64,000 nt of DNA from Deltaproteobacteria bacterium (GCA_040218735.1 JAVJQW010000018.1:1-64000); one strand, 5' to 3'; positions 18,946 to 51,934 are shown, counted from the stretch's first letter. Notes: generated from the sequence alone by a model not told the origin. A program made the numbers and translations.

Positions 18946-19011
18946 TCGCTCGCGGGACACACCGCCACGAACGACGCCGACCTGGCGCCGCTCCAAGCGA
19001 GCCCATCCACC

Positions 19012-20385
19012 TTGGATGCTAACATCCCGTCGGGTCGCCCGGACACTTCGTGGACGGGTCGGCGCACCGCGGCACGCACATGGTGGGCGCTGTGCGTCCT
19101 GGTGATCGTGGGGACTCCCTGGGTCGCCTACGGAAAGCCCGAGGTCTGCGAGCAGGTGCGGTCCCGCATCGAGGACACCGCGCCCACGATCGGGGACACC
19201 GCGCGCCTGCTGGTGCTCGCCCCCTATTTGACGGAAGCGACGGCGCCGAAGCTCCTCGCCCGCGCGAAGACGTCGAGCAGCGCGCGTACGGCGGTGGATC
19301 TGTACCTCGCGATCGGTCTGTCGCGTCACGCGTCGAACCTCAAGCGGCTCCGCGACGAGCCGCGCGCGACGCGGTCCGAGCTTCGTCTCGGGCAGGCGAT
19401 CGCGCGCTTCGCGCTGGGCGACGGGACGCTCACGGGGACGATCGCGAAGGCGCTCTACGAAGGATCGTTGGACGAGCGCCGCGCCACCGCGCACGCGCTG
19501 GCGCTCATGCGACAGAAGCGCCCGCAGATCATGTTGTACGACGCGCTCCAGGATCCGGACCCCGAGGTGCGCCTCGCGGCGGGGCGCGTTCACTACCCGC
19601 GTCGAAGCCGCCGCGCGCGGCGTGTGTTGTTGGAGCTGTTGGAGCGGGGTGAGCCCGCGATCCGCGACGACGTCGCGGGCCTCCTCGTCGAGCACCACCA
19701 CCGTTTCTCGAGCGCCGCACCCCTGCCGGATCGGCTCCGCGGGCGGGTGCTGGTCGACACCGCGGTGCGTTCGCGGAGCGGCGCGCGGACGGCGCGGGTG
19801 CAGTTGATGTCGCGCGACGCGGTGGAGCGCCGCGCGGCGTTTGCCACGCTCGCGGGGCTCGGGACGTACTCGGTGAAGACACTCGGGCGCCTCGCCGCGA
19901 AGCCGAAGGCGCGCTACGGCGACGTCGTCGACGCCGAGCTCACGATGGCGCTGGCGTTGATGGGCGACACCGCGTCGATCCACGCGCTCGCGAAGCTCGA
20001 GAAGGTTCAGGCCGAGGCGGCGGCGGAGGTGTTGTTCTCGTTCTCCGGTGCGAAGGCGCCGTACTCGCAACTGGACTTCGACCACGCGGCTTCGTTGGCG
20101 CGGGCGATCGAGCCCTGGGTCGTGCGGGGCGTGGTCAGTCAGATCACCCAGCGCCGGATCTACGATGCGTTGGATCGCGCCGAGTCGAACGCGGCGGCGG
20201 CGCTCGCGCGGTCGCGGCTCGCGGGACCGAGCGGCGCGGGGCTCGCGGCGGCGATCCGCGTGCTGTCGGAGGCGGGGACCACGCGCGACGTACCGATCCT
20301 CATCGCGGTGGCGGATCGGAAGGTCTCCGTGCGCGTCGAGGGCTACGCAGCCGCCGCGGCGATCTGCGCTGCGTCACGTCAGTGA
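19012..20385 (+). CDS. Exported HEAT-repeat protein (start uncertain)
   Basis: C-terminal part of the 14704 ORF: hydrophobic 'WWALCVLVIVG' and HEAT-like 'DALQDPDPEVRLAA'. Confidence 0.6.
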   Translation: MDANIPSGRPDTSWTGRRTAARTWWALCVLVIVGTPWVAYGKPEVCEQVRSRIEDTAPTIGDTARLLVLAPYLTEATAPKLLARAKTSSSARTAVDLYLAIGLSRHASNLKRLRDEPRATRSELRLGQAIARFALGDGTLTGTIAKALYEGSLDERRATAHALALMRQKRPQIMLYDALQDPDPEVRLAAGRVHYPRRSRRARRVLLELLERGEPAIRDDVAGLLVEHHHRFSSAAPLPDRLRGRVLVDTAVRSRSGARTARVQLMSRDAVERRAAFATLAGLGTYSVKTLGRLAAKPKARYGDVVDAELTMALALMGDTASIHALAKLEKVQAEAAAEVLFSFSGAKAPYSQLDFDHAASLARAIEPWVVRGVVSQITQRRIYDALDRAESNAAAALARSRLAGPSGAGLAAAIRVLSEAGTTRDVPILIAVADRKVSVRVEGYAAAAAICAASRQ

Positions 20386-37154: not shown

Positions 37155-37838
37155 GTGGCCCCCGCGCGACCGATTCAGATTGCACCCTCGATCCTTTCGG
37201 CCGACTTCGGCCGCCTCGCGGAGGAGATCCGCGCGGTGGACGAGGCGGGCGCCGACCAGATCCACGTCGACGTCATGGACGGGATGTACGTCCCGAACAT
37301 CACTATCGGCCCGCTGATCGTGAAGGCCGCGCGCAAGGCCACGAAGAAGCCGCTCGACGTGCACCTCATGATCGTCGAGCCCGAGCGCTACGTCGAAGAC
37401 TTCATCGAGGCCGGCGCGGACACCGTCACGGTCCACGCTGAGGCCGCGACGCACCTGCACCGCGTCATTCAGCAGATCAAAGGGGCGGGCGCGCGCGCGG
37501 GGGTGTCGCTGAACCCGAGCACGCCGCCGGACGTCCTCGACTACGTGCTCGGCGACCTCGACCTCGTCCTCGTGATGAGCGTCAACCCAGGTTTCGGCGG
37601 GCAGTCGTTCATCCCCGCCGTCGTGCCGAAGATCGCCGCCATCCGCGAGCGCCTCGAGGCCCGCGGCCGCGCCGGTGAGGTCGACATCGAGGTCGACGGC
37701 GGCATCAAGCCCGCCACGGCCCCGGCGGTCGTCGAAGCGGGCGCCAACCTGCTCGTCGCGGGCTCCGCGGTCTTCAATCAGCCCGACTATCGCGCCGCGA
37801 TCGAGGGCATCCGCAACGCGGGGCACCAAAGGCATTGA
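37155..37838 (+). CDS. rpe: Ribulose-phosphate 3-epimerase
   Basis: '[10 protein letters not shown]', 'HVDVMDG', 'DVHLM', '[10 protein letters not shown]', 'EVDGG', 'VAGSA'. Confidence 0.97.
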
Positions 37839-37864
37839 CAGCCGGCCCCACCGAAGCATAAACG
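37835..37864 (+). promoter_or_regulatory. Possible sigma70 promoter for tRNA-Pro
   Basis: Perfect TTGACA at 37835-37840; weak -10 (TAAACG) 18 bp downstream. Confidence 0.4.
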
Positions 37865-37927
37865 CTTGCTTCCGCGACGGGAGGTCGGCCCAACGGCCAT
37901 CGCTCCGCCGCGAAAAAATCGACCTTA

Positions 37928-38002
37928 CGGGGTGTAGCTCAGCTTGGTCAGAGCGCTTGGTTCGGGATCAAGAGGTCGGAAGTTCAAATCTTCTCACCCC
38001 GA
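37928..38002 (+). tRNA. tRNA-Pro (anticodon CGG), CCA not encoded
   Basis: Acceptor stem CGGGGTG/CACCCCG, D-arm AGCTCAGCTTGGTCAGAGC, anticodon arm CTTGG-TTCGGGA-TCAAG, T-loop TTCAAAT; followed by CTA rather than CCA. Confidence 0.96.
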
Positions 38003-38006
38003 CTAG

Positions 38007-38050
38007 AAGGGCCCGAGAACACTGGTTGTTCTCGGGCCTTTCGCTTTTCT
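38007..38050. terminator. Intrinsic terminator hairpin between tRNA-Pro and the convergent retron RT
   Basis: 12-bp stem GGCCCGAGAACA-ctggt-TGTTCTCGGGCC (38010-38038) followed by TTTCGCTTTTCT; AGAA on the other flank suggests it may act on both strands. Confidence 0.82.
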
Positions 38051-38058
38051 CGGGCGCC

Positions 38059-39342
38059 CTAATCGTCGAGCTTCGCGAGCCGGTCCAGGAACGCGCGGCC
38101 CTTCTTCGGGTCCGTCATGTACACGTACGCGGCCATCCCGCGGAGCTCCGACACCGACTCCTTGGCGCCGCGCCCCAACTCCAGGTTCTTGATCGCCGCA
38201 CGGAGGTTTCGGACCGTCCGGCGGGGCACGCGCGCTTTGATCTCATGATCGTCGTTCACCACCAGGCCCGTGATCTGCTGCCGGCGCCCGCGCCGTAGCA
38301 CGCGCGTCTTCTTCCGGTTCACCCAGAAGCCCTCGTCACGCACGATGCCGCCGACCACCTTGAGGAGCGGTCCTATCGGCGCGTCGTCCTTCTTCCCGTG
38401 CCACGAGAACGTCAGGTCGTCCGCGTAGCGCGTGTAACGAAAGCCGAAGCTCTTCACCAACGCGCTGATGCGCGCGTCGAGGCGCAGGCAGATCGCGTTC
38501 GTGATCGACGGGCTCGTCGGCGCGCCCTGCGGGAGCGACCGCGCGCCCGTCGCCACGTAGTACGTCTTGCCCTTCATCTCGATCGTCTCGCGCGGTGACT
38601 CCGTCACCAACAACGCGAGGATCGTCGCGACCTGCTCGCCGTAACCCGCCTTGCGCAAGAGCCCCTTCACCCGCGGCGTGGTGATCGTCGGGTAGAAGTC
38701 CGACAGATCGATCTTCACCACGATCTCCGCCCCCGCGTGCACGCGCGCGTTGGTCACCGTGCTGCGCCCCGGCAGGAACCCGTGCGCCGCGCCGTGCACC
38801 GGGAGGTGCTCCGTGATCTTCTGCGCGATCCAGTGCTGCACGCGTTTCAGCTCCGGCTTCGGCGCGGAGATCAAACGCTGCCCACCCGTGCGCTTCGGCA
38901 CCGTCCACCGGTGGTAGTGCGTCCCGCGTTCGACCTCGCGGTGGTACGCCAACCAGCGCAGCCGCGGGATCGTCACGTCCAACGCCTTCGCCAACGCCGT
39001 CACGTCCGCGAGGTCCGGCAGGTCGTTCTCCCGGCGGCGCGCCTCGGCATCTTCGATGTCGAACTTGTCGACGTCCGCGGTGTCGTGATGGAAGACGCCG
39101 ACGCCCACGTGCACCAGGTGCGCCCCGCGGTACGCCGACCACGCGTGACGCTTCAGCGTCTTCCGCACCCGCCGCTCTTCTTCGCGCCGCGCCTTGTACT
39201 GCTTCTTCTCCGCGTCCGAGAGCGTGGACGTGTCGCGGTTGTCGATCAGGTCGCGGCGCATCAGCTCGGCGTGGACCCAGGCGTCCACGCCGCCTTCGGC
39301 CGCGATGACGTCCCAGGCGGGGAGGGCGTTCGGTTCGGTCAT
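38059..39342 (-). CDS. ret: Retron-type reverse transcriptase (myxobacterial msDNA type)
   Basis: 'KRTGGQRLISAP', 'AAHGF', region X 'NARVH' (NAxxH), 'LPQGAPTSP', catalytic 'YADD', region Y 'QITGLVVN'; charged N-terminal extension. Confidence 0.96.
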   Translation of the reverse strand: MTEPNALPAWDVIAAEGGVDAWVHAELMRRDLIDNRDTSTLSDAEKKQYKARREEERRVRKTLKRHAWSAYRGAHLVHVGVGVFHHDTADVDKFDIEDAEARRRENDLPDLADVTALAKALDVTIPRLRWLAYHREVERGTHYHRWTVPKRTGGQRLISAPKPELKRVQHWIAQKITEHLPVHGAAHGFLPGRSTVTNARVHAGAEIVVKIDLSDFYPTITTPRVKGLLRKAGYGEQVATILALLVTESPRETIEMKGKTYYVATGARSLPQGAPTSPSITNAICLRLDARISALVKSFGFRYTRYADDLTFSWHGKKDDAPIGPLLKVVGGIVRDEGFWVNRKKTRVLRRGRRQQITGLVVNDDHEIKARVPRRTVRNLRAAIKNLELGRGAKESVSELRGMAAYVYMTDPKKGRAFLDRLAKLDD

Positions 39343-39369
39343 GCCGTCGTCGGTCTTCGTCGTCGTCTC

Positions 39370-39653
39370 TTCAGAACTGTCGTCAACGAGGTGGGGAAGC
39401 CGTAACTCGCTACTTCCTTACTCGGGACACGGTAGGCTCACCGGTTTGGCCCCCGGAGGGGGTACTATCGACTGGGCCTGAACGACGGATGCGTGGTTGG
39501 CCCAGCTAGGCCCGTCGATAGTACCCCCTCCGGGGAGCCAAACCACGCATAGCCTACCTTGTGGTGAATGCCGAACGATTGAGCTCGGACGGCGCTACGC
39601 CGCCCTGAAGCTAACAAGGCCGACTTCCCCACCTCGGTGGCGACAGTTCTGAA
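39370..39653 (-). ncRNA. msr-msd: Retron msr-msd non-coding RNA
   Basis: 30-bp inverted repeats 39370-39399 / 39624-39653 with 2 mismatches; UUAGC branch site (G at 39611); two small msr hairpins; msd hairpin 39431-39558 with a perfect 22-bp core; directly upstream of the RT. Confidence 0.92.
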
Positions 39654-39687
39654 TCTCGAAACTACTTCGAAGGACCTCCCCCTTTCC

Positions 39688-41496
39688 TCACCCCGACTCC
39701 GCCGACGTCGAGTCGATGTAGCCGCGTTCCGCGAGGCCGTCGAGCCTCGCGAAGTACTCTTCTTTCGCTTCCTCGGCCGAGCCGAAGAACAACCGATGCA
39801 TCCGCATCGCGTCCAACGCTCGACCCCACCGCAAGACGACTTGCCGGTCGTCGAGCGAGATTCGGTAGGTCGTCGAGCCGTCACGTTCGCGGCGGATCAA
39901 CGTCCGCGTCTCCGCGCGGATCAACTTACGACCCTCTTCCGTGTTGCGCGCCGCTTCGAGCTCCGCGCGTTTGCGGGCGTACGCGAGGCGCAGCGCGATC
40001 ATCGGCACCGTCGGACCTTCGCGCAACCCCGCGCGACGGAACTGCGGGCTCGTGCAGGTCGCGTCGACGGTGCGCCCCTCGCGGTCCAGCGTGAACGACG
40101 TCGAGTAGACGCGGTGTGCCTTCTCGTCCGCGACCGTCCCTTCGATCCGCATCCCCTCCGCGCCGAGGTCGTGCAGCTTCGTGATCTCCACCTGGCCGGG
40201 TGTCTGTAGCAGCCGGTGCGCCTCGGCTTCGCCCGCGTCGCGGTAACGCACGTGCTCGCGGTCGATCGCATCCGAGAACAACGCCCGCGCGCGGAACACC
40301 GCGGCGGGGACGTCGTGCACCACCCGGCCCCGCTCGATCTCCGCGAGGAGCGCCTGCCGGATCGCGTTCGTGCTGCGCCCGAGCTCGGACGCGAGCGCCG
40401 TGATCGACGCCGGCCCGTGACCGAGCCGCTGCAACACCCGCGGCGCGAGCAAGTCGTCCGTCGTACCCGCCGCGAGCAGGTCGAACGTCGCGATCCCCGC
40501 CCATCCGCTGTCGACCCAGCCCGACAACGACAACGTCAGCTGCGCGTCGCCGAGATCGACCACGTAGGTCGCCGGCAGCCCTGCGCCGAGGACCCGCACT
40601 TGGACCTTCTTCGCGTGCGGCAACACCCGCGCGAGCGCCATCAACCGCTTGCGCCCCCACGTCCGCAGGATGATCGGACGGTCGCCTTCGTACGGCCCCG
40701 CGGTCCCCGTGAACACGAGGTCCCACGGCTCGAGCACCAGACGCGGCGCCTCACCCGGGACCAGCTCGTAGCGCAACGCCCGCGGCGACGTGCGCGCGCG
40801 CTGACGCTTGAGCGTGAGGAGCACGTTGTAGAGATCGACCGGCGCGAGCTCGAACGTCGACGCCGGGAGCGTCGACGCCGCCTGCACCTGACCGAACGCA
40901 CGAATCCAGCGGTACGGCACGGCGATCTCACGGTCCTCGCCGCTCGCGCCGGGCCGCACGGTCAGCGAAGTGGTGCGGTACGAACGAATGCGGGCGATCG
41001 ACTCCAGCGCCGCCGCCGTCAGGTTCAGGTTCGTGGTCCCCGATTGGAACGAAGGCGCCGAGAACGCTTCGCGCGCGAGGAACAACCGCGCGTACGAAGA
41101 CTCGTCGCGGGAGAACACTTCGAGCGCGACGCCGTCCTCCGTGACGTGCAGGATCGGATCGAGCGGCGCCGCGACCTCCTCCTGCTCGCCGTACTTCGCA
41201 TCGAGGTAGGCCTTCTGGGCGTTCCACAGCTCGTTCGACGCCGCCTTCCCCTTCGTCGCGAGGTACGCGAGATAGTCCGACCGATCCTGCGCCTTGAACC
41301 GAAGGTCGCTCGCCAACACGTCGCCCACGCCGAGCAACGCATCACGCGCAACCTCCGGCCGCACCAGCTCACCCGACACCGACGGGCCCGCGCGCATCGC
41401 GTCGGTCGAGAGCATGACGTCGAGTCGATCGCCATCGACGGTCGGTGCGACGGGCGCGTCGTAGCGAACGACGACGCGTTTGGTCTCGGCGCTCAT
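39688..41496 (-). CDS. Retron-associated protein: wHTH + degenerate SWIM + C-terminal WGR-like domain
   Basis: SWIM-like 'DATCTSPQFRRAGLREGPTVPMIALR'; WGR-like 'VVLRWGR...FGSAEEAKEEY...AERGY'; ATGA-coupled to the upstream gene. Confidence 0.75.
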   Translation of the reverse strand: MSAETKRVVVRYDAPVAPTVDGDRLDVMLSTDAMRAGPSVSGELVRPEVARDALLGVGDVLASDLRFKAQDRSDYLAYLATKGKAASNELWNAQKAYLDAKYGEQEEVAAPLDPILHVTEDGVALEVFSRDESSYARLFLAREAFSAPSFQSGTTNLNLTAAALESIARIRSYRTTSLTVRPGASGEDREIAVPYRWIRAFGQVQAASTLPASTFELAPVDLYNVLLTLKRQRARTSPRALRYELVPGEAPRLVLEPWDLVFTGTAGPYEGDRPIILRTWGRKRLMALARVLPHAKKVQVRVLGAGLPATYVVDLGDAQLTLSLSGWVDSGWAGIATFDLLAAGTTDDLLAPRVLQRLGHGPASITALASELGRSTNAIRQALLAEIERGRVVHDVPAAVFRARALFSDAIDREHVRYRDAGEAEAHRLLQTPGQVEITKLHDLGAEGMRIEGTVADEKAHRVYSTSFTLDREGRTVDATCTSPQFRRAGLREGPTVPMIALRLAYARKRAELEAARNTEEGRKLIRAETRTLIRRERDGSTTYRISLDDRQVVLRWGRALDAMRMHRLFFGSAEEAKEEYFARLDGLAERGYIDSTSAESG

Positions 41497-44400
41497 GTCC
41501 GGGCCTCCCGTTGCTGCTGCCGCTGCGCGCGGCGCAACGCCTTGAAGGTCGCGGCGCGGACGGCGTCCGGCTCACCCTCGGTGTCGAGGATCGACTGCAG
41601 CGCGTTCGCCGCCGCGTCCGTCCCGACACGACCGAGCGCGTAGATCGCGGAGAGACGCGCGGCGGACTCCCCGGACCCCGCCGCCGTCGCGACGAGCGCA
41701 TCCACGCGCCGATCCCCGACCGCGGAGAACAGCGCGATCGGCCGCTCGTCGGACGCGAGCACCGCCGTCGCGTCGGCGTCGAGCGCCGCGCTTACCATCG
41801 GGCCCACCGCGCCCGGATCCGGCACGGCGGTCTCGCGGAGAATCGCGGGCGCGGCCGCAGCGTCGAGCGCGACGATGGTCGCAGCAGCCGCCGCGCGCAC
41901 CGAAGCGTCGGACGCGGACAGCGCCGGCTTCAAACGCGCCACGTCGCCGGCGCTCCCCACCGCTGCGATGAGTCGGAGCGCCTCCACCCGCACGTCGGCC
42001 GGCGCATCCTCCGAGGTGATCGCTCGATACGCCGCCGCGCTCGCGTCGGCCTTCAGGCGCGCCGCCGCCCACATCGCGGCGTGCCACGCGCGGTGGTCCT
42101 TCTCTCGCTCCGAACGCTCCAGCGCTCCGAGGACGTCCGGGCCGAGCGCGAGGTTGCCGGCGGCGCCCGCGAGGAACGCAGCCTCGGCGCGGGCGTGGCC
42201 GTCGTCGCTCGCGAGGAGCGCACGCAGCTCTTCGGACGGCGCGAGGCCGCGCCGTGCGAGGCCGAGCCGCAAACGTCGACGCACTTCGCGATCTTCGATT
42301 GCCGCGATGCGCGAAACGAGGGTCGCGGCGTCGCCGCCCTTCGCGAGGAACGCCGCCGCCGGCGCGCTGACGTCCGAGTGTTGGCTGTCGAGCGCGTGCA
42401 GCGCGACGCGCGTCGGGTCGTCCGCGAAGGTCTTCGTGAGCGCCGCGAGGGCCTTCCGTCGCACCGCCCGATCGGGATCACCGAGTGCGTCCGCGAGCAC
42501 CAGCTCGGACGCGGCCGGTGCGAGGACGATCAGCTGATCGATCGCGAAGCGTCGCAGGTTCAGATCGTCGTAGCGGTCCGCGACGATGCGTTCGATCTGC
42601 TCGCGGCTCGCGTCGTCGCCCGCCCGTCGCAGCCCGGTGATCGTCTGGCGGCGAACGTCCGCCGTCCCCTCACGCGCGAGGCGCACCACCGTGGAACGGA
42701 TCTCTCGCCGCCGCTCTTCATCGACGATCCGCGGCACCATCGACGCGAGCGCCTCGGCCGCGAAGGGCACGAGCGCAAGGTCCGCTTCCTCGAGCTCTGC
42801 GCTCGGATCCACGAACGCGATCAGCTCATCGACGGCGCGGTCGTCTCCGAGCACGCCGAGCCCGAGCATCGCCTGCTGTCGCTCATGCGGCAGTCCGGCC
42901 TTCAGCACCAGCAGCAACGGCCGGAACGCCTCGACGCGGCCGCGCACCGCGAGGCCGACCGCCGCGGGGAGCACCAGCTCGCGTCGGCCGGCGGCGATCG
43001 CGCGCTCCAACGCGGCGATCGAAGCACCTTCGATGTGCTCGGCGCGGAACGCGATCGACTCGGCGGCGGCGACGCGCACGTCTGCGTCGCGGTCGTCGAT
43101 CAGCTTGGCGAGGGTCACCTCCGCGTCCGCGTCCTCGACCGCGTTCAACAGCGTCGCCGCGGCGATACGCAGCTCGGGGCGAATGCTCGCCGCCGCGACG
43201 CCCGCGTACCGAATCGCGAGCGCGTCGTGGTAGCGCAGGCGTGCGCCGCCGTCGGTGATCGGGACGCTGGGCCGCGACGTGTCGCGCGCGATCGCGACGA
43301 GCGCTTCCCACCCCGTGTCGCCGAGCGCGGTGTCCTCGTCCGCGAGGATCGCGAAGAGTGTGTCGGACGCCGCGTCACTCCCGATGCGGCCGAGCGCCCG
43401 GACGATAGCGCGGCGGTCCGCGGTGGCGTCGGGGTCGTCTTCGAGGCGGCCGGTGAGGGCGGTCGCCGCCGTCGCCGCATGTTCGTTTGCGGCCGACGCC
43501 AACGTCACCAGCCCGTCGATCGCGCGCGAGGCGGTGCGTTCGTCGTCGCTCCGCAGGAACCCGGCGAAGACGTCGGCGGTGCGGGGGTCGCCACGACGCG
43601 CCAGGCTGCGCGCCGCCTGCATTCGCAGATCTTCGTGGTCACTCTCCAGCGCGCGCCCGAGCGCGGCGCGGATGCGTGCCTCGTGGTCGTCGGCGTTGGG
43701 CAGCGCGGCGAGGCGGTCCACAACGAGTCGTCGCACGTCGGCGAACGGGCTCTCGAGGGCGATGAACCAAGGCTCGAGGCTACCCTCCTCGAACAATCGA
43801 GGCAGCCGCGACAGCGCGTGGGCGCGCGCATCACGGCTCTTCGCCGCAAGCGTGCGCGGCGCGAGCTCGCGCGCGGCGGCGTCGCCCTCCAGCGCTCGCT
43901 CGATCACGAGATCCACCGCCGTGCGTCCCACATCGTCCGCCGACGAATCGAGCGAAAGCAGCAGAGGTGTGATCGGGTCTTCGGGGTACAGCTCGGTCAG
44001 CGCCGTCTGCGCGCGGCGCCGCACGAGGTGGTGCGGATCCGACAACGCCCGGCGGACGATCGGCAGCACGGCGTCGCGTCCCACGGACGCCAGCGACGAC
44101 AGCGCGACGAGCCGCGCGACGCTGTCGCGGCGAACGCGGTGGGTCTCGTCGGCTTCGCCCTCGGGCGGCGCCTGACGGACGAGCCCGGCGTAGGTGCCGA
44201 ACAGCACCTCGTCGACCGGCCCCGGCTTGGCTTCGCCGCGGGCGAACAGGCGACGCAGCCAACCCTTCTTGGTTCGGGTGCGCGACTCGTCTTCCCAGTT
44301 CGTGTGCGGGCGCGCGCCACCGCCGGGTCTCGCGAGCCGACGCGCTTCACGCCAGTAGCCCTTCGGCGTCGCGCGGAGCTCCAACACACGCGCGGCGGCG

Positions 44401-47400
44401 TAGCGCTGCTCCGGGTCGTCGCTCGCGAGCGCCGCGACGACCACCGACAACAGCCGGGCCTGCTCTTCCTCCGACGGAAGGTCCTTGGGCTTCGCTCCGC
44501 GCTCCGGAGTCTTCGGCCCGACCATCGAACGCGCGACGTCTCCGATGGCCTCCTCGTCCGTGCGTGTCTCGAGCGCGCGCGCCGCCGCGAAGCGAACCTC
44601 CGGGTGCGCGCTCGAGAGCGCGAGCACGAGGAGGTCCGGTACGAGCCCCGCCCGTGCGAGCGCGATGTCACGTGCGACGACGATCGCGAGCACGAGGTCC
44701 GCGACCTCGCGATCTGGATCCTGAAGCCCGGCGAGCAACCCGCGCACGCCATCGGGGCCGAGCGCGACGAACCCGAGGATCGCGCCGACGCGTATCGGGC
44801 GGTGATCGTGCGTGAGGGTGCCGGCGAGAACGACGGCCGCGCGGTCGTCGCCGAGGCGCGCGAGGCCCTCCGCCGCCCAGCTCCGCACCGCCATGTCCGC
44901 GTGCGCGAGCGCGTCGACCAGCGGCTTCTCGCGCCCGGGTCGACACGCGGTCGCGAGGCCACGGGCGCCCATCTCGCGGACCGTGCCGTCCTCGTCGTCG
45001 AGGAGGGAGATATAGAACGGGATGACGCTCGGGTCGCCGACGTCCGCGAGCGCCCGCGCCGCGCGTGCGCGCAGGTCGTCGGTCGGGCGATCGAACGCGA
45101 TCTTCGGGATGCGCAGGAGCGCCTTAATCGGCTCCACGGCGCGTTTGTCACGACGTTTGCCGAGCAGCTCCGCCGCGCGCACCCGCAGCTCGAAGAACAC
45201 ACTCGCGAACGCACGCCGGTATGGTTCGACGTCCTGGTGGAACATCGCGTCCGCCGCTTCGATCGCCGCGAGGTGAACGTCACGGTGCTCCTCCGTGATG
45301 AGCTCGAGGAGGCGGGCGCGGAGATCCTCGGCCGGCGCGCGGCGACAGCCCTTGCACCCGGCGGCGCGGACCTCGGGCCGCGGCGAGTGGAGCGCCATCA
45401 GGAACACGTCGGACTTGGTCTCCTCCGCTTCGTCCTTCGTGATCGCTTTCAGCGCGGCGAGCCCCACGTCGGACGACGCGTCCGCGACGAGCGCGAGCAA
45501 CAGACGCCGCGCCCACTCGCCCTCCGCCTTCGCGAGGCGGTCCACGACGGAGCGCCGGACGTCGGCGTGTCTCGAACCCGCGCCCCGCCGCAAGGCAGGT
45601 TGCAAGTCTTCGCTGTGCCACGCGAGCAGCGTGCGCAGCGCCTCGGTGCGGACCTTCGAGGACTCGTCGTCGAGCGCGCGCCCGAGGAGCTCGTCGGCGC
45701 GGGACTCACCCTGCGCGGCGACGACGAGCGCGAGCGATCGGCTCCGGATGTCGTCGCGGCCCGCGTCGAGGGCGAGCGCGGCGAGGTCGAGGCGGGCGTC
45801 GGTGCCCTCTCCCGCGAGGTCGAGCAGAGCCTCGAAGGCCGCGTTGGCGATCTTCTCGCTGGTGTCGTCGAGCAGCCATGACAGGCGCGCGGTCGCGCGG
45901 TCGTCGTTTGGTATCGCGCGCGCGGCGACGAGGAGCGGCGCGACGACCATCGCGCGGACTTCGTCTCGGCTCTCGCGGCTGAGCTGCAGCAGCGCGCCCA
46001 CCGCTCTCAGATCTCCGAGCGCGGCGAGGCGCGCGGCGCCGAGCAACGCGGCGTCCGCACGACGACACGCGAGCGCGGCGAACAGCGGGACGAGGTCGGC
46101 CTCCTCGGGGGCGCCATCGGCTGCCGCCGTGCCGATCGCCTCGAGCGCCTTGGCGGCGTCGGGGTCGACGGCCGCGAGGCGGGCGGCGAGCCGAGGGCGT
46201 GCGGCGACGGCGACGTAGAACGCGGTGCGCCGGATCGCCGCGTCGTCGTCGTCGAGCGAGCGTTCGACGAGGTGCTGTCCGTCGGGGGTCGCGGAGAGGT
46301 TCGACTTCGCGAGGCGGAGGAGCGTCGCCTTGCGAACGTCCGGCGGCCCCCGTTCCAGGGCGACCTCCGCTGCGGCGAGCGGCGCGTCGCGCTCCAGCGT
46401 GAACAGCGATTCGAGCGCGGCCTTTCGGACCTCGTCGTCGCCGTCCGAGAGGCTTCGCGCGACGAGCCCGGGCACCAGCGGCGACGCCGCACGGTGCGCG
46501 GGGAGCCGCTCCACCGCGAGCTTGCGGAGGTCCGCGTGGCTCGAGCTCAGCGCTGCGGTCAGTGGTCCGACGGGGGTTCGAACGTCGATCGTCGCCAGCG
46601 CATCGAACGCTGCGCGGCGCGCACCGGCGTCGGCGTCGTTCAGAGCCGACTTCAGCGCGCCTCGCGAGCGACGCCGTTCGCCCCGCCCGATGGCGGCGGC
46701 GGCGGCCTTGCGGACCTCGGCGTCGCGGTCCTGGGTCAGCGCGCGGTCGAGTAGCTCGCGGGCTTCGTCTTCCGCGAGGCCCTCCAGCATCATCACCGCG
46801 TCGAGCCGCGCTTGGCTGCCGCGTGCGCCGAGGTCGGCCGAGAGGCGCTCGAACGCGGAGCCGTAGCGCTTCGTCTTGTGGGGTGCGCCCTTGCCGTCGA
46901 GGCCGACGATCGTCAGGCGCCGGTCTTCGCCGACCAACGCGATTCGCTCGGCGTCCAGCAGCACGCCGGACGTCAACGTACCGCCGACCTCGGTGAGCTT
47001 CGGTTTGCGACGGCTGTCGACGAACCACGACGCGAGGTTGCCGTCCTGCCCGACGGAGTGCAGCCGCCCGGGCCCCACGAACAACGCGACCACCGGACCG
47101 CGGTGGGCCTGGTCGCCGGAGCGGTCCTCTTCGTCGACGGCGCCCTCGAGGAAACACAGGCGAATCGATCCGTCCCCGCACCCCACCGCGACTCGACCGT
47201 CGCCCGTGAACGCGAGTGAACGTACGCCGCCTTCGCCGCACGGCATCCGGCGCGGCTCGCCGCTCCGCATCGCGAACACGACGCCTTCGTCGCCGCCGGT
47301 CGCAACGGTCTCACTGCTCGGGTCGAAGGTGGTCGCGCGCAGCGGCTCCTTCGACAGCACGACCGACGTCAGCTCGGTGCCGTTGGCGTCGAGCACGAGC

Positions 47401-47753
47401 ACCGACCCGTCTTCGCGCGCGGCGTAGACACGTTGGTCCGCGACCAGCGCGTTGGTCTTCGAGCCCGGGTGTGCGGCGCCGAGTGTCGGTCGGTTGCCGG
47501 AGAGGTCGTAGATGGTGAGGCCGCCGCGCTCGTCGGCGACGAAGAGGCGGTCCTCGCCCGAGAAGGCGAGCGCCGTGACCGGCGCGCCGACGTCGATGGC
47601 GTGTTTGGGCTCCAGCTTCTTGCCTTCGAAGACGTGAACGGTGGAGGCCGCGACGTTCGGCGCGTCGCGCCGCCCGCCGATCGCGACGCGCCGCCCTGAA
47701 GGCGTGCATGCGACCGCGGTGAGTCGCTCGAGGTGCGGTCGGAAGTCAGCCAC
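41493..47753 (-). CDS. Retron-associated giant WD40 + HEAT/ARM repeat protein (~2086 aa)
   Basis: N-terminal WD40-like blades ('VTALAFS', 'VATGGDEG', 'AVGCGDGSIR'), then many HEAT units ('ALxDxDxxVR'). GTG start at 47753 has a GGGAG RBS and overlaps the upstream stop. Confidence 0.85.
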   Translation of the reverse strand: MADFRPHLERLTAVACTPSGRRVAIGGRRDAPNVAASTVHVFEGKKLEPKHAIDVGAPVTALAFSGEDRLFVADERGGLTIYDLSGNRPTLGAAHPGSKTNALVADQRVYAAREDGSVLVLDANGTELTSVVLSKEPLRATTFDPSSETVATGGDEGVVFAMRSGEPRRMPCGEGGVRSLAFTGDGRVAVGCGDGSIRLCFLEGAVDEEDRSGDQAHRGPVVALFVGPGRLHSVGQDGNLASWFVDSRRKPKLTEVGGTLTSGVLLDAERIALVGEDRRLTIVGLDGKGAPHKTKRYGSAFERLSADLGARGSQARLDAVMMLEGLAEDEARELLDRALTQDRDAEVRKAAAAAIGRGERRRSRGALKSALNDADAGARRAAFDALATIDVRTPVGPLTAALSSSHADLRKLAVERLPAHRAASPLVPGLVARSLSDGDDEVRKAALESLFTLERDAPLAAAEVALERGPPDVRKATLLRLAKSNLSATPDGQHLVERSLDDDDAAIRRTAFYVAVAARPRLAARLAAVDPDAAKALEAIGTAAADGAPEEADLVPLFAALACRRADAALLGAARLAALGDLRAVGALLQLSRESRDEVRAMVVAPLLVAARAIPNDDRATARLSWLLDDTSEKIANAAFEALLDLAGEGTDARLDLAALALDAGRDDIRSRSLALVVAAQGESRADELLGRALDDESSKVRTEALRTLLAWHSEDLQPALRRGAGSRHADVRRSVVDRLAKAEGEWARRLLLALVADASSDVGLAALKAITKDEAEETKSDVFLMALHSPRPEVRAAGCKGCRRAPAEDLRARLLELITEEHRDVHLAAIEAADAMFHQDVEPYRRAFASVFFELRVRAAELLGKRRDKRAVEPIKALLRIPKIAFDRPTDDLRARAARALADVGDPSVIPFYISLLDDEDGTVREMGARGLATACRPGREKPLVDALAHADMAVRSWAAEGLARLGDDRAAVVLAGTLTHDHRPIRVGAILGFVALGPDGVRGLLAGLQDPDREVADLVLAIVVARDIALARAGLVPDLLVLALSSAHPEVRFAAARALETRTDEEAIGDVARSMVGPKTPERGAKPKDLPSEEEQARLLSVVVAALASDDPEQRYAAARVLELRATPKGYWREARRLARPGGGARPHTNWEDESRTRTKKGWLRRLFARGEAKPGPVDEVLFGTYAGLVRQAPPEGEADETHRVRRDSVARLVALSSLASVGRDAVLPIVRRALSDPHHLVRRRAQTALTELYPEDPITPLLLSLDSSADDVGRTAVDLVIERALEGDAAARELAPRTLAAKSRDARAHALSRLPRLFEEGSLEPWFIALESPFADVRRLVVDRLAALPNADDHEARIRAALGRALESDHEDLRMQAARSLARRGDPRTADVFAGFLRSDDERTASRAIDGLVTLASAANEHAATAATALTGRLEDDPDATADRRAIVRALGRIGSDAASDTLFAILADEDTALGDTGWEALVAIARDTSRPSVPITDGGARLRYHDALAIRYAGVAAASIRPELRIAAATLLNAVEDADAEVTLAKLIDDRDADVRVAAAESIAFRAEHIEGASIAALERAIAAGRRELVLPAAVGLAVRGRVEAFRPLLLVLKAGLPHERQQAMLGLGVLGDDRAVDELIAFVDPSAELEEADLALVPFAAEALASMVPRIVDEERRREIRSTVVRLAREGTADVRRQTITGLRRAGDDASREQIERIVADRYDDLNLRRFAIDQLIVLAPAASELVLADALGDPDRAVRRKALAALTKTFADDPTRVALHALDSQHSDVSAPAAAFLAKGGDAATLVSRIAAIEDREVRRRLRLGLARRGLAPSEELRALLASDDGHARAEAAFLAGAAGNLALGPDVLGALERSEREKDHRAWHAAMWAAARLKADASAAAYRAITSEDAPADVRVEALRLIAAVGSAGDVARLKPALSASDASVRAAAAATIVALDAAAAPAILRETAVPDPGAVGPMVSAALDADATAVLASDERPIALFSAVGDRRVDALVATAAGSGESAARLSAIYALGRVGTDAAANALQSILDTEGEPDAVRAATFKALRRAQRQQQREART

Positions 47754-50421
47754 GTCGCGGCTCCCCGACGGCCGGCGGCAGCTTCGTCTCGACGTCGCCG
47801 TGTGTCGCGCGGATGCGCGCGAGCGCCGCGACGCACGCCTGCCACTCCCCCTGGGCGGCCGAAGCCATGAACTCGTCGAACACCGGCACCACGACGTCGG
47901 CGAAGGCGCGGTCTTCGATCGCGAGGTCCCGCATGACCTCGACGAGCCGCCGCTTCGCGACGCTCGCCGGGAACGGACGCGCGGGTGCGAGCTCGGCGTC
48001 GAGCTCTCTTCGTTCCATACGACCCGGCGGTAGCCCGAACAAGACGGTGCGGAGGAACTGCCGGAGCGCCTCGCCAGACGCGCCTTCACGGCCGTGTTTG
48101 CGCCACAACAGGCGCACCGCGAAGAGCCGCACGTCGCGGTCGGGGCTCTCCATCAGCCACGCGAGGCGCCGTGCGCCGCCGACGCGATCGTAGTGTCGCT
48201 CGATCAACGTCAGCGCGATCTCGCGCGTGGCCTTCACGTGGCTCTCGGCGAGCGCGAACAACCGCACGTCGTCGAGCCACTCCGACGGCACCGAGATCTC
48301 CGCGTCCTCGTCACCGATACCGAACAGCGCCTCGGCGGCGAGCTGTCGCCCCTCGCGGAAGCGGCTGTCGGCGAGCTCGTACACGAGCGCCGCGTCGCCC
48401 CAGCGCACGAGCTCCTGGCGCCCGACTCGTACCGCGAGGCGGCGTACGTCGGCGCGCTCGTCGGTGAACCCGGAGCGCACGTAGGCGAGGCCGTACGCGG
48501 CGTGGTCGAGCTTCGGCGCGATGGCGAGTGAGCGACCCTCGTTGGTCGTCGGTCCGAGCACCGGGTGGTGCACCGCAAGGTAGGTTGCAGCGAACCGACG
48601 CACGGGCTCCGCCTGCTTCGGCCCCGTCGCGAGGTGCCACAGGCGCTCGATGCCGCCGAAGTCGTCCGGTGTGAAGTGCTCGAGGAGGTACTGGTGCGCG
48701 AAGCTCGCGAGCGCCTCGTCCGTGCGCCGTGTCATCGCGAGGAGCCACTCCAGCCCGACGCGCCCCGGCCGCACGAGCTTCGGGTTGGAGAGGATGCCGA
48801 TCGCCAGCGGCCGCAGGCTCGGCCGCATCACGAGGCCCTTCACCCACTCCACGTCGAGCGCGTCGCCGGACAGCATTCCGTCGAGCAGCCAGCGGGACAC
48901 CGTGGACTGCAGCGCCGGGTTCATCACGGCCTCTTTCAGCCACGCCGCGCCGATCTCCTGGCCGCTCCGGGTCGAGAGCATCTTCAGGGCGTCGCGCCGC
49001 TCCGACCAGCCGCAGCGCCGGTCCTCGAGGAGCTGCGTGAGGTACGCCGCGGGGATGGTTTGCTCCGCGTCTCGGAAGAGCTTCTCGACGAGCCCCTTCA
49101 TCTCGCGGCCGCTCGTGTAGAGCGCGATGAACTGCTCGGCGCTCAGGTCACGAGGCTGGTACCCGCGCCGCAGCATCTCGGTCGCCAGCTCGCGCGCGGC
49201 GCGTACGCGGAGAAGTCGCGTGAGGTGGTCGAGGCCGATCGTCTTCGGGTCGAGCTTGCCGAGGCGCTCGAGCGCGAAGTCACGGGCGTCGGCCGGACCT
49301 TCGACGAGCTCGACGAGGCGGTCCACCGGGAGGTTCGGCACGTGCGCGCGAACGTAGGCGAGGGCGTACCGCCGCGCGGCTTCGCTCTCGCTGTCGAGGA
49401 AGCGGACCACCATGTCGCCGAGTCCGAGTGCGGCGAGCTTCGACTGGTGCAGCTCCGGGCTCTCTTCGAGGAGGCGCACCACGAACGCGTGCACGGAGCC
49501 GAGCGGACGGCGCGCGATGCGCTCCAGCCACTTCGGATCCACCTTCTCCTTCTCGCCGGGGAAGTCCGTCTCGATGCAGCGAATCGCGAAGCGACACACG
49601 GAGTCGTTGTTCGCGTCCTCCAGGAGGCGCAAGACAGGTTGCGGCGACGCCTTCCACGCCTCGTGGGCGTAGCGCTTCTCGAGATCGTCCGGCGGCCCGT
49701 CCATCCACGACGAGCCGCTCCCCTCGTACTCCAGATCCGCGTGCGCCCAGATCTGATTCGCGACCCACGACCCCGCGAACTTGAACCGCTGCGGATAGTG
49801 GCTCAGGACCTGCGCGGCGAGCGATGGATAGACGTCCGGCAGCGCGCGGCCGAGCTCGCGGAGGTACCGCCACGCGCGCCGCCGCATGTACAGGACGGTG
49901 CCGGGGAGGATCTCGTCGGTGCGGTACGGCGTCTGCGGGAGGGCGTCGAGGCGCCACAGGAGCACGCCGAGCATCCGCACGTCGTGTTCGTCCTCCGCGC
50001 GTTTGTAGATCGCCTTGAACGCCTGCCAGGTGCCCCACCCGAGTCGGGCGCGCGCGAAGACGTCGACGAGGAGCTGCCGATGCCACGCGTCGCCGCCCTC
50101 GTAGAACGCGGTGAGCATCGGCCCGAGGTCGAGGCGCGGCGGGTGATGGGGCGCGGCGATCACCTGCTTCCACGCCTCGGCGCGTATCACCTTCTTCTCG
50201 TCGTCGGTCTTGCCGTCGAGGGTGTTCGGGTGGAGCGAAGTGCGGAGCCGCTGAAGCGTGAACGCATCCGCCGCCGCCGGGTCGGCTTCGTCGGCACCCT
50301 CCGCGCGGTCCTCGGGCGGGTCGGGTTGCTCGAGGTAACTCACGATCAGAGCGGCCGCCTCCGGGCTCCGATCGTCGAGCGCGCGCTGGACGTCTGCAAA
50401 CGTGATGGCGGCGCCGCTCAT
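47746..50421 (-). CDS. Retron-associated ARM/HEAT-like hypothetical protein (~891 aa)
   Basis: Helical L/A/R-rich protein with HEAT-like units ('FLDSESEAARRYAL', 'LMESPDRDVRLFAV'); first gene of the coupled operon; start re-assigned to MSGAA. Confidence 0.75.
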   Translation of the reverse strand: MSGAAITFADVQRALDDRSPEAAALIVSYLEQPDPPEDRAEGADEADPAAADAFTLQRLRTSLHPNTLDGKTDDEKKVIRAEAWKQVIAAPHHPPRLDLGPMLTAFYEGGDAWHRQLLVDVFARARLGWGTWQAFKAIYKRAEDEHDVRMLGVLLWRLDALPQTPYRTDEILPGTVLYMRRRAWRYLRELGRALPDVYPSLAAQVLSHYPQRFKFAGSWVANQIWAHADLEYEGSGSSWMDGPPDDLEKRYAHEAWKASPQPVLRLLEDANNDSVCRFAIRCIETDFPGEKEKVDPKWLERIARRPLGSVHAFVVRLLEESPELHQSKLAALGLGDMVVRFLDSESEAARRYALAYVRAHVPNLPVDRLVELVEGPADARDFALERLGKLDPKTIGLDHLTRLLRVRAARELATEMLRRGYQPRDLSAEQFIALYTSGREMKGLVEKLFRDAEQTIPAAYLTQLLEDRRCGWSERRDALKMLSTRSGQEIGAAWLKEAVMNPALQSTVSRWLLDGMLSGDALDVEWVKGLVMRPSLRPLAIGILSNPKLVRPGRVGLEWLLAMTRRTDEALASFAHQYLLEHFTPDDFGGIERLWHLATGPKQAEPVRRFAATYLAVHHPVLGPTTNEGRSLAIAPKLDHAAYGLAYVRSGFTDERADVRRLAVRVGRQELVRWGDAALVYELADSRFREGRQLAAEALFGIGDEDAEISVPSEWLDDVRLFALAESHVKATREIALTLIERHYDRVGGARRLAWLMESPDRDVRLFAVRLLWRKHGREGASGEALRQFLRTVLFGLPPGRMERRELDAELAPARPFPASVAKRRLVEVMRDLAIEDRAFADVVVPVFDEFMASAAQGEWQACVAALARIRATHGDVETKLPPAVGEPRRG

Positions 50422-50563
50422 CCGGGCCCCGCGATCTAGCAGCGGCCGGACTTGGGGGCAAACCGGGGAGGGGGAGGCATCGACAGGCCCCCGCGTCGGT
50501 GCCAGAACGAGCCCCGATGGCCGAGACCCGAGCGGCGAAACCGACGATCGAGGCGCGGTGACG

Positions 50564-51934
50564 ATGCCCCCGTTCCTCACCCTCGTCGCCCTGACTTCGT
50601 CGACCGCGACCGTCGCCGACGTGCCGACCGCCACCGTCGCCGCCGCGACGGTTCGCCCCGAGGACGCCAACAGCCGGATCGACACCCCCGGCCCGACCTA
50701 CACCGACGTGCTGCTGTTCATGCCCCGGCTCGTTCTGGCGCCGGTACGCTACACACTCGCGCTCGTCGCCTGGCCGCTGCGCAAGGGACTCGAGCTCGTC
50801 GAGGAGTATCGGGTCATCGAGCACACGATCGACCTGCTCTACAACGACGCGCGCACCGCGGGGTTCTTTCCCACCGTCGACTTCTTCTCCTCGCAGGGCA
50901 CGACCGTGGGGGGCCGGCTCTTTCACAACGACGTGTTCGGCAACGGCGAGACCGTCTCGCTCAGCGCCAAGCTGGGCGGCCTCTACGCTCAGGGGTACGC
51001 GCTCGACTTCGGCGCCGATCGCCTCGCCGACACCCCGTTGTGGATCGAAGGCTCCGCGCGCTGGGAGCGCCGCCCGCGCCTGTACTTCGAGGGCATCGGC
51101 AACCTCGACACGACCACCAGCTTCACCGGGCTCCAGGACCCGTACGTCGCCGCCGTCCCCACGCGCTTCGCGCAGGAGCGCGTGCTCGGTCGACTCCGAC
51201 TCGGGACCACGCACGGCCCCGCGGACGGGCGCGTGAAGATCGGGACCTCGCTGTTCTTCAACCACCGCCACTTCGGCCCGGCCGACCGCCTCGGTGACGA
51301 CGAACGCTCCATCGAGACCGTCTACGACACGTCGAGGATCGTCGGATTCGACGACGGCTTCTCACTCTTCGAAGTCACCGCAGACCTCGTCCTCGACTTC
51401 CGCAACCGCCCCGGCCAGACCTCACGCGGCTTCTTCTTCGAGGCGTTCGCGGGCGGTGTGCCGGAGCAGGACGGTCGCCGCTTCTTCCACTGGGGCGCCG
51501 ATTTAGCCGTGTTCATCGAGGTCTTCGCCGAGACCCGCGTCCTCGTCCTGCACGGCGCGGTCGAGGGTGTCGAAGGTGAACGCGAACGCATCCCGTTCAC
51601 GGAGCTGCCGCGGCTGGGCGGCGCCGGACGCCTCCGTGGCTACCAGGTCGATCACTTCCGCGGTGAGAAGGCGGCGATCACCAGCCTCGAATATCACTAC
51701 CCCATTCATCAGCTCCTGCGCGGGGTGCTGTTCGTCGACGCCGGGCGTGTCGCCGATACCTACGCCGATCTCTTCGACACTTACGCTTGGCGCTACTCGG
51801 CGGGCGGTGGGTTGAAGATCGGGACCGAGGAGAGCACGTGGCTGCAGATCGATCTCGCCTACGGCGACGGTCTCTTCCTCACGATCTCCTCCGCTCCGTT
51901 CCGATCGTTCTCGGGGAGGACGGAGCGACTATGA
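50564..51934 (+). CDS. Omp85/BamA-TamA family outer-membrane barrel protein without obvious POTRA domains
   Basis: Omp85 lid motif 'LGGAGRLRGY..DHFRG', 'LEYHYP', 'LFVDAGRV', 'SAGGGLK'. Confidence 0.82.
   Translation: MPPFLTLVALTSSTATVADVPTATVAAATVRPEDANSRIDTPGPTYTDVLLFMPRLVLAPVRYTLALVAWPLRKGLELVEEYRVIEHTIDLLYNDARTAGFFPTVDFFSSQGTTVGGRLFHNDVFGNGETVSLSAKLGGLYAQGYALDFGADRLADTPLWIEGSARWERRPRLYFEGIGNLDTTTSFTGLQDPYVAAVPTRFAQERVLGRLRLGTTHGPADGRVKIGTSLFFNHRHFGPADRLGDDERSIETVYDTSRIVGFDDGFSLFEVTADLVLDFRNRPGQTSRGFFFEAFAGGVPEQDGRRFFHWGADLAVFIEVFAETRVLVLHGAVEGVEGERERIPFTELPRLGGAGRLRGYQVDHFRGEKAAITSLEYHYPIHQLLRGVLFVDAGRVADTYADLFDTYAWRYSAGGGLKIGTEESTWLQIDLAYGDGLFLTISSAPFRSFSGRTERL

Follow-up and report, generated by a model that had tools for sequence, protein, structure and literature searches.

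An intact Mx162-like type XIII retron in a large Myxococcota-type genome, with a SWIM-family partner predicted to contain a sliding-clamp fold

How might a retron act when its partner proteins carry no recognisable toxin or nuclease? The question is raised by a locus at positions 38059-50421 of a 64,000-nt stretch of DNA (hereafter the window) from a Deltaproteobacteria bacterium (GCA_040218735.1 JAVJQW010000018.1:1-64000). Five parts follow one another on its minus strand: genes for an ARM protein, a giant WD40/HEAT protein and a SWIM-family protein, then msr/msd, the non-coding RNA (ncRNA) gene, and a retron reverse transcriptase (RT). The first retrons to be discovered were of the Mx162 type, and the locus is almost certainly a complete, chromosomally inherited, long Mx162-like retron of type XIII; its genome is of Myxococcota type and large, at 11.6 Mb. 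A full-text literature search, with most subscription journals outside its coverage, found no study of the mechanism, phenotype or structure of type XIII, in agreement with a preliminary description of the same DNA, which knew of no described mechanism.

Mestre et al. (2020; PMC7736814) describe type XIII as RT clade 10 with a distinct ncRNA, a SWIM-family protein as primary partner, HEAT/ARM accessory genes (“in some cases two genes”) and WGR-like partners. Their Table 1 assigns Mx162, Mx65, Sa163 and Ne144 to it (Retron-Mxa1, Mxa2, Sau1 and Nex2), and a survey of SPIRE genomes treats it as a known, broadly distributed type (2026; PMC13712802). The window has the same RT clade, SWIM partner, HEAT/ARM accessories and long-stem msr/msd, and since the type has already been defined, the locus adds a member to it. 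All four window proteins match PADLOC type XIII models (E 9e-156 to 0), which bears out the type proposed in the preliminary description.

The RT matches PADLOC RT_XIII with E 9.1e-156 and 517 bits, the runner-up model being RT_other with 312 bits, and Pfam RVT_1 with E 8.8e-22. Its motifs are YADD at residues 306-309 (window 38416-38427), NARVH at 198-202 and ITG at 357-359; NAxxH and VTG motifs are specific to retrons. In a quick maximum-likelihood tree (IQ-TREE), all 22 RTs of the long variant defined below, that of the window included, fall on one side of a branch with SH-aLRT support of 99, so that the window RT groups with the RTs of loci that have the same partners. The subclades of this tree track host families.

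Between the SWIM-family and RT genes lies an msr/msd with the features expected of a retron. A 33-nt inverted repeat (a1 at 39621-39653, a2 at 39370-39402) is 91% complementary and encloses a long msd hairpin at approximately 39427-39562. The 296-nt RNA folds to -189 kcal/mol, compared with -111 ± 5 for shuffled sequences (z -15.1; none of 200 shuffles as good). In an alignment of seven related loci, 95.3% of cells are paired in the consensus structure; shuffles give 80.8% and slid partners 34-45%, although the slid-partner control favours the consensus structure, which was derived from the same seven sequences. Compensatory changes occur in 37 of 85 pairs, a count that none of 500 shuffles reached. 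The msd stem has 37 pairs, of which 26 differ at both positions and none at one position alone. Nearly all variation among its pairs (alignment columns 221-324, window ~39443-39544) takes the form of double Watson-Crick substitutions, whereas the a1/a2 and msr helices accept G-U changes; such a pattern would be consistent with a DNA duplex, rather than an RNA duplex, being under selection. From the position of a2 and the span of the hairpin, the msDNA would be approximately 160 nt long. An Rfam scan of the window reached threshold for tRNA only, and msr/msd matched no family.

The interval 38059-50421 is occupied by four large ORFs on the minus strand, all with the codon composition of genes (Table 1). 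The preliminary description had read three translationally coupled genes of ~891, ~2086 and 602 amino acids running into an intact msr/msd and a retron RT, and every element of that reading was recovered: the overlaps as stated, and the ncRNA and RT by inverted repeat, fold, covariation and motifs. The ARM and giant genes overlap by 8 nt, GTGGCTGA, where the ARM gene ends “...CGT GGC TGA” and the giant begins “GTG GCT GAC”. The giant and SWIM-family genes share a 4-nt ATGA overlap (giant end “ACA TGA”, SWIM start “ATG AGC”), with GGGAGG 8 nt 5' of the SWIM-family ATG. The starts that give 891 and 2086 amino acids are probable ones, chosen because the PADLOC models begin aligning there and because 891-residue homologues exist. 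The SWIM-family stop lies 34 nt before a1, and the RT start 28 nt past a2.

Do these parts belong together? Classical retron descriptions name only msr, msd and ret, and on that basis the retron could consist of msr/msd and RT alone, with three unrelated same-strand neighbours upstream. We sampled 301 genomes of the phylum, in which RT_XIII was present in 102. The giant occurs in 79 of the 301, all 79 of them RT_XIII-positive, and in none of the 199 RT_XIII-negative genomes; 23 RT_XIII genomes lack it. Gene neighbourhoods were compared in 43 loci (40 RT-centred stretches and three from an RT-based search for related loci), each searched with the four window proteins. The SWIM gene adjoins the RT in 40 of the 43; two of the misses are at contig ends (L005, L020) and one locus truly lacks it (L045). 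RT homologues were thus found linked to these partners, in keeping with the single locus proposed in the preliminary description. The locus L045 (G213:C1:9163683-9183100) has an RT_XIII-like RT of 44% identity on a long branch of the tree, and SWIM, giant and ARM genes are absent within 12.5 kb upstream and 6 kb downstream of it.

The loci fall into two variants. The long variant comprises 21 loci and the window, with RTs at least 51% identical and SWIM proteins that extend to approximately residue 600 where present (20 loci); three truncated loci are classed here from RT or SWIM similarity alone. The giant is present in every one of the 18 long-variant loci whose upstream sequence is long enough, and the ARM gene is adjacent in 12. 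In the 22 short-variant loci, RTs are 39-49% identical, SWIM proteins end near residue 505 where present (20 loci), the giant is lacking and the accessory gene is smaller. Six short-variant accessories were tested: two are full WGR_XIII proteins with an N-terminal Pfam WGR, two match PDLC02922, one is partial and one unmatched.

Four long-variant loci have a non-adjacent ARM gene. In the five genomes checked (those four and G117), it is in each case a single match on the same strand, 1-30 kb farther upstream. The ARM genes of G172, G182, G213 and G254 lie 9-30 kb upstream past unrelated genes, e.g., a histidine kinase and a GH26-like gene, and in one Mx162-type locus a JmjC/cupin gene stands between the ARM gene and the giant (L036, 16348-17235). 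All five parts recur in the G117 locus, where the proteins are 38-52% identical and one extra gene is inserted. Two ARM homologues (P0368 and P0370, 46-48% identity) carry names from Gammaproteobacteria metagenome-assembled genomes, one of them “Candidatus Contendobacter”, which may place the long variant outside Myxococcota or may reflect mixed bins.

A different arrangement is seen in G077. One of its contigs carries msr/msd ahead of the ARM gene, 92 nt upstream (L050, contig C130, 9845-10042), and on another only 12 nt separate the SWIM stop from the RT start (L027, C304, 2069-2084). The two contigs probably abut, in which case genes spanning approximately 11 kb would separate msr/msd from the RT. 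Such a permutation would be difficult to account for if the five parts were not one unit, and a single unit is also indicated by the gene overlaps, the linkage of SWIM protein and giant, the retention of the ARM gene and the RT tree. The stop-start overlaps, the 79 of 79 co-occurrence of giant and RT_XIII, the adjacency of the SWIM gene in 40 of 43 loci, the position of msr/msd upstream of all four genes in G077 and an RT phylogeny that tracks the partner set bring the reading of three unrelated neighbours close to refuted, and we regard it as highly improbable.

Of the partners, the SWIM-family protein is taken first. It matches PADLOC SWIM_XIII with E 8.4e-145 (residues 8-509, model positions 3-506 of 509), and its AlphaFold2 model, built with 64 diverse homologues, is confident (pLDDT 90.9, pTM 0.90). 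In this model, residues 39-333 take up a PCNA/sliding-clamp fold. The leading matches of a Foldseek search against the PDB are all PCNA (E ~1e-7, probability 1.00). VIA-align, a search independent of Foldseek, was run over 48,161 chains and superposed 211 of 245 residues on archaeal PCNA 3aix_A (Z 15.5, rmsd 2.6 Å); its best 26 rows are all clamps (PCNA, 9-1-1, viral and bacterial). The module thus models as a whole PCNA monomer, with a helical hairpin of ~30 residues (73-103) inserted. It differs from PCNA, 9-1-1 and beta clamps in that identity in the clamp alignments is just 7-16%, three more domains are fused to it, and the operon has no clamp-loader gene. No clamp chain was among the PDB profile matches of the SWIM-family alignment at E ≤ 1; that search gave winged-helix matches only, all weak (E ≥ 0.0066). 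The predicted likeness is one of fold, from which neither a ring nor a clamp function follows; a homotrimer prediction (residues 1-333 three times, run with no controls) scored 0.00 and is informative neither way on a ring. The literature search, with the coverage given above, did not turn up any reference to a clamp fold among type XIII partners.

The label SWIM/WGR in the preliminary description holds in part. The protein belongs to the SWIM_XIII family, but its motif is not CxC...CxH: the window has C481-T-S483...T496-V-P498, with the exact CxCx12CxH spacing and three of the four zinc ligands gone. Ligands 2-4 (C, C, H) are replaced by S, T/S and P in 119 of 120 close homologues (at least 57% identity, P0005-P0124), whereas CxCx12CxH is intact in 110 of 149 SWIM-family representatives. 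The clade with the degenerate motif retains the spacing and neighbouring residues (REGPTVPMIALR), and a few representatives also lack the first Cys. The AlphaFold2 model keeps the SWIM fold element despite the lost ligands. Pfam SWIM matches 36 of 64 family members, the window protein not among them. As for WGR, residues 529-602 superpose on residues 1-74 of 2ra8_A (Z 10.8, rmsd 2.5), which we take to be a WGR domain, and two homologues carry the JGI name “predicted DNA-binding WGR domain protein”; by sequence the C-terminal WGR-like assignment is weak, and phmmer of the C-terminal 86 residues against the PDB returned no match at E ≤ 10. The window's clade differs from the published type XIII retrons in the loss of three zinc ligands, and the window has its predicted WGR-like domain at the C-terminus of the SWIM protein, rather than at the N-terminus of an accessory protein.

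The preliminary description overlooked a published proposal for this protein. Mestre et al. (2020; PMC7736814) give the primary partner (cluster 114_1) the motif Dx7[D]x4Ex30-32Dx37E followed by a winged helix and a C-terminal SWIM, file type XIII under “putative nucleases” and propose a transposase-type origin. The SWIM protein would then be a toxic, metal-dependent DEDE nuclease derived from a transposase and held inactive by the RT-msDNA complex, with the solenoid proteins as accessories. Two of the published positions are conserved family-wide (D113 in 57 of 64 members, E126 in all 64), and so are two acidic residues just outside the motif (D131 in 60, E132 in 55). The other positions fare differently in the window's clade: residue 121 is D in nine of 26 clade members compared with 45 of 64 in the wider family, and residue 158 in six of 26 compared with 48 of 64, the window having N158 and hence an incomplete DEDE. 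The acidic region itself models as clamp fold with pLDDT >90, and no transposase or nuclease sequence match was found in Pfam, NCBIfam or the PDB. A clamp fold with a new active site would still be compatible with a nuclease; we nevertheless consider a DEDE nuclease unlikely.

A transposase or RNase H fold was likewise considered and is unsupported, Foldseek and VIA-align both identifying the model as a clamp. No RNase H-like or transposase chain is among the structural matches listed by either program, which is not proof of absence because one domain type fills the list. In MULE/IS256-type transposases, too, a conserved acidic motif precedes a SWIM-type element, but there the fold is RNase H-like, whereas the acidic residues of the window protein lie in a modelled clamp fold and no sequence match links the two.

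The two remaining partners appear to be large repeat proteins. The ARM protein matches HEAT-ARM_XIII PDLC02921 with E 1.6e-254 and no Pfam or NCBIfam family. Its AlphaFold2 model consists entirely of helices (pLDDT 89.4), and Foldseek returned only the HEAT solenoids of CAND1, PP2A-A and condensin, at TM 0.1-0.3. The giant aligns with the whole of HEAT-ARM_XIII PDLC02919 (E 0). HEAT repeats, as claimed in the preliminary description, are clear from Pfam HEAT_2 (E 1.7e-73, 14 stretches); for the WD40 part, Pfam WD40/propeller matches stay below cut-off, and it is an ESM Atlas look-up that places residues 1-420 in a WD40 cluster (0.93) and the rest in HEAT clusters (0.95). Sequence matches of the giant in the PDB are alphaRep/HEAT and WD40 designs. 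Across the ~3,580 residues of the three partners, Pfam, NCBIfam and PADLOC show no nuclease, protease, TIR, kinase or similar domain. The earlier impression that none bears a recognisable toxin or nuclease is upheld by the domains now assigned, namely clamp-fold, winged-helix, SWIM-like and WGR-like modules in the SWIM protein, a solenoid in the ARM protein, and WD40 and HEAT repeats in the giant.

Because the partners comprise a PCNA fold, a winged helix, a WGR-like fold, an ARM solenoid and a WD40 and HEAT giant with no catalytic-domain match, we propose that they act non-enzymatically, in a complex built on msDNA. The RT would copy msd into an msDNA of the length given above with a long DNA hairpin core. 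The SWIM protein would serve as a nucleic-acid adaptor rather than an enzyme, holding the msDNA/RNA hybrid through its four modules, and the ARM solenoid and the giant would assemble on the SWIM protein and msDNA; with the four proteins at one copy apiece, the mass comes to ~436 kDa. Infection or DNA damage might be sensed as a change in the msDNA, a trigger suggested because retrons with known mechanisms work in this way, or a foreign protein might be sensed on the repeat surfaces. The output would be stoichiometric, with no catalytic domain of the operon at work: DNA ends or forks might be occluded, or factors of the host or phage captured or recruited. The preliminary description likewise suggested that a large scaffold-type RT-msDNA complex may sense phage or DNA damage, which is still a conjecture.

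The solved retrons (I-A, II-A, III-A, IX and RT-Toprim), in the sources consulted, have the same combination of RT, ncRNA/msDNA and partners in one operon, and their partner is held by the complex of msDNA and RT until a trigger arrives (e.g., PMC12548924). Their partners are a PtuAB ATPase/nuclease, Toprim or PRTase-like, whereas no catalytic domain was found in those of the window. Taken whole, type XIII identity together with a non-enzymatic msDNA complex, our best explanation has about an even chance of being right; the non-enzymatic mechanism by itself is a tentative proposal that falls somewhat short of this.

Several observations weigh against the explanation. According to the same sources, the effectors of mechanistically solved retrons are enzymatic or membrane ones, and a retron lacking an effector would be out of the ordinary. 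The acidic residues D113, E126, D131 and E132 are invariant or nearly so down to ~25% identity and could form a metal site. A small domain within residues 421-2086 of the giant, a region judged from sequence, could have been missed. Support for WGR is slight: Pfam PF05406 matches the isolated residues 517-602 with E 0.041 and 14.4 bits (cut-off 22), none of the 64 family members has a Pfam WGR match at E ≤ 0.01, and hhalign of the long-variant SWIM alignment against the short-variant WGR_XIII protein gave no WGR-to-WGR match (probability 0.1). Finally, PADLOC finds no defence proteins flanking the locus except a kinase-domain giant 18 kb away, and this, together with inheritance that looks vertical, makes the locus a poor fit to a classical defence island.

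A bolder version of the proposal draws on eukaryotic DNA-end sensors, which include the WGR domain of PARP, the Ku ring and the HEAT cradle of DNA-PKcs. By analogy, the retron locus combines similar kinds of module (a DNA binder with a ring fold, a giant HEAT solenoid and a WGR-like domain), without the kinase or PARP catalytic domain. Type XIII might then be an effector-less, DNA-PK-like surveillance machine, in which the clamp-derived module and the domains fused to it would ride on or cap the unusually long msDNA hairpin, the solenoids would close around it, and the output would be physical and non-catalytic, with DNA ends, forks or a phage factor being captured or blocked; the zinc-less clade with the relaxed DEDE motif would be the purest scaffold. 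This is speculative, and we think it improbable as stated.

TABLE 1. Features of the retron locus and its borders. Coordinates are positions in the window; residue ranges refer to the protein named.
Feature	Position	Strand	Evidence
ARM/HEAT-like all-alpha solenoid protein, 891 aa, 100 kDa	47746-50421	-	PADLOC HEAT-ARM_XIII PDLC02921
Giant WD40+HEAT protein, 2086 aa from GTG, 221 kDa	41493-47753	-	PADLOC HEAT-ARM_XIII PDLC02919
Predicted WD40-type beta-propeller of giant, residues ~1-420	46494-47753	-	ESM Atlas; HEAT repeats to end
SWIM-family protein, 602 aa, 66 kDa	39688-41496	-	PADLOC SWIM_XIII
Predicted PCNA/sliding-clamp fold of SWIM protein, residues 39-333	40498-41382	-	Foldseek, VIA-align
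Winged helix of SWIM protein, residues 345-410	40267-40464	-	VIA-align, Z ~10
SWIM-like domain of SWIM protein, without three of four zinc ligands, residues ~436-517	39946-40191	-	Motif alignment
WGR-like domain of SWIM protein, residues 529-602	39691-39912	-	VIA-align against 2ra8_A
msr/msd ncRNA gene	39370-39653	-	Inverted repeats, fold, covariation
Retron RT, 427 aa, 48 kDa, pI 10	38059-39342	-	PADLOC RT_XIII, Pfam RVT_1, motifs
Divergent intergenic region, 142 nt, presumed promoter region	50422-50563		Between ARM ATG and Omp85-family ATG
16-bp hairpin, likely two-way terminator	38006-38042		Between RT stop and tRNA-Pro(CGG)
tRNA-Pro(CGG) gene	37928-38003	+	Convergent with RT gene; both share the 16-bp hairpin

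The borders of the transcript can be placed with some probability. The ATG of the ARM gene, at 50421 (-), diverges from that of an Omp85-family gene at 50564 (+). A promoter is presumed rather than identified in the region between them because no sigma-70-like site was found; a scan of 37800-51000 gave none, the sigma-70 pattern being uninformative for this kind of organism. A terminator scan returned nine hits (4.4 ± 2.0 expected), of which the hairpin at 38006-38042, with 16 pairs, is the sole strong one, the other eight having 5-8 pairs. This agrees with the preliminary description, which saw no clear terminator before a hairpin at 38010. The retron transcript would end there, a conclusion we keep provisional because the T-run is on the plus-strand side only.

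The wider neighbourhood bears on a further alternative, in which the locus is a domesticated, vertically inherited Myxococcota housekeeping complex, for example for DNA-end or fork handling or for development, rather than an anti-phage system, with RT-msDNA as a structural cofactor. Its neighbours are rsmB, rpe, tRNA-Pro and an Omp85-family gene, which can be counted as housekeeping genes, and the near absence of PADLOC defence proteins points the same way. Identities to the window fall in step among the parts (RT 51-75%, SWIM 41-72%, giant 33-58%, ARM 32-61%), the long variant is found in at least three families of the phylum, RT subclades track host families, and the giant model has one match in most genomes that contain it, including 67 of 115 genomes of one family (f9). 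Mestre et al. (PMC7736814) note a correlation of type XIII with 16S and the possibility of domestication.

Set against domestication is a patchy distribution in the window's own family, where the giant occurs in five of 19 other genomes. Flanking genes are not common to the loci either: when eight window neighbours (tblastn) and the tRNA (blastn) were compared with the 43 loci, one RsmB-like and one weak kinase match were found, the former beside a short-variant locus, and no insertion site is shared. Gene order is fluid, as seen in the JmjC insertion, the displaced ARM genes and the moved msr/msd, and the retron types with a reported function, so far as the sources consulted go, all act in phage defence. 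On balance, we find a housekeeping complex doubtful.

The tRNA-Pro adjoining the RT gene also raised the possibility of a genomic island, which was rejected, as no integrase, tRNA-end repeat or defence neighbours were found; att-like repeats were not searched for. The kinase-domain giant mentioned above is a 2127-residue ORF at 13990-20373 (-) with a Ser/Thr-kinase domain at residues ~480-765 and a PADLOC PD-T4-6/mad6 match (E ~1e-68); it may simply be one of many myxobacterial kinases. The genome holds one SWIM_XIII gene. It also contains a second, unrelated retron-type RT of 402 residues (G000:C9:464365-465162; L049, 8351-9559), which matches PADLOC RT_other (E 3.7e-128) and RT_outgroup (E 2.5e-120); none of the seven neighbouring ORFs tested has a PADLOC match.

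The locus is thus an intact, ordinary member of a catalogued type. New here are the clamp fold predicted in its SWIM protein, the lost zinc ligands, the C-terminal WGR-like domain, the restriction of the giant to RT_XIII genomes and the relocated msr/msd, while the published suggestion of a transposase-like nuclease finds no support in the confident structure model, in which a PCNA-like clamp fold is joined to three further domains that probably bind nucleic acid. The modelled domains suggest questions that can be tested, namely whether the msDNA hairpin is bound, whether a ring forms and whether the solenoids assemble. Natural variants offer material for comparison, with zinc-less SWIM motifs, WGR-like domains on different partners, an msr/msd that probably lies 11 kb from its RT and ARM genes up to 30 kb away. 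A truly enzyme-less system would act by a route new to retrons and, more widely, to systems based on an RT. How type XIII works is a long-standing question, for which the fold and variant data offer more direct tests.

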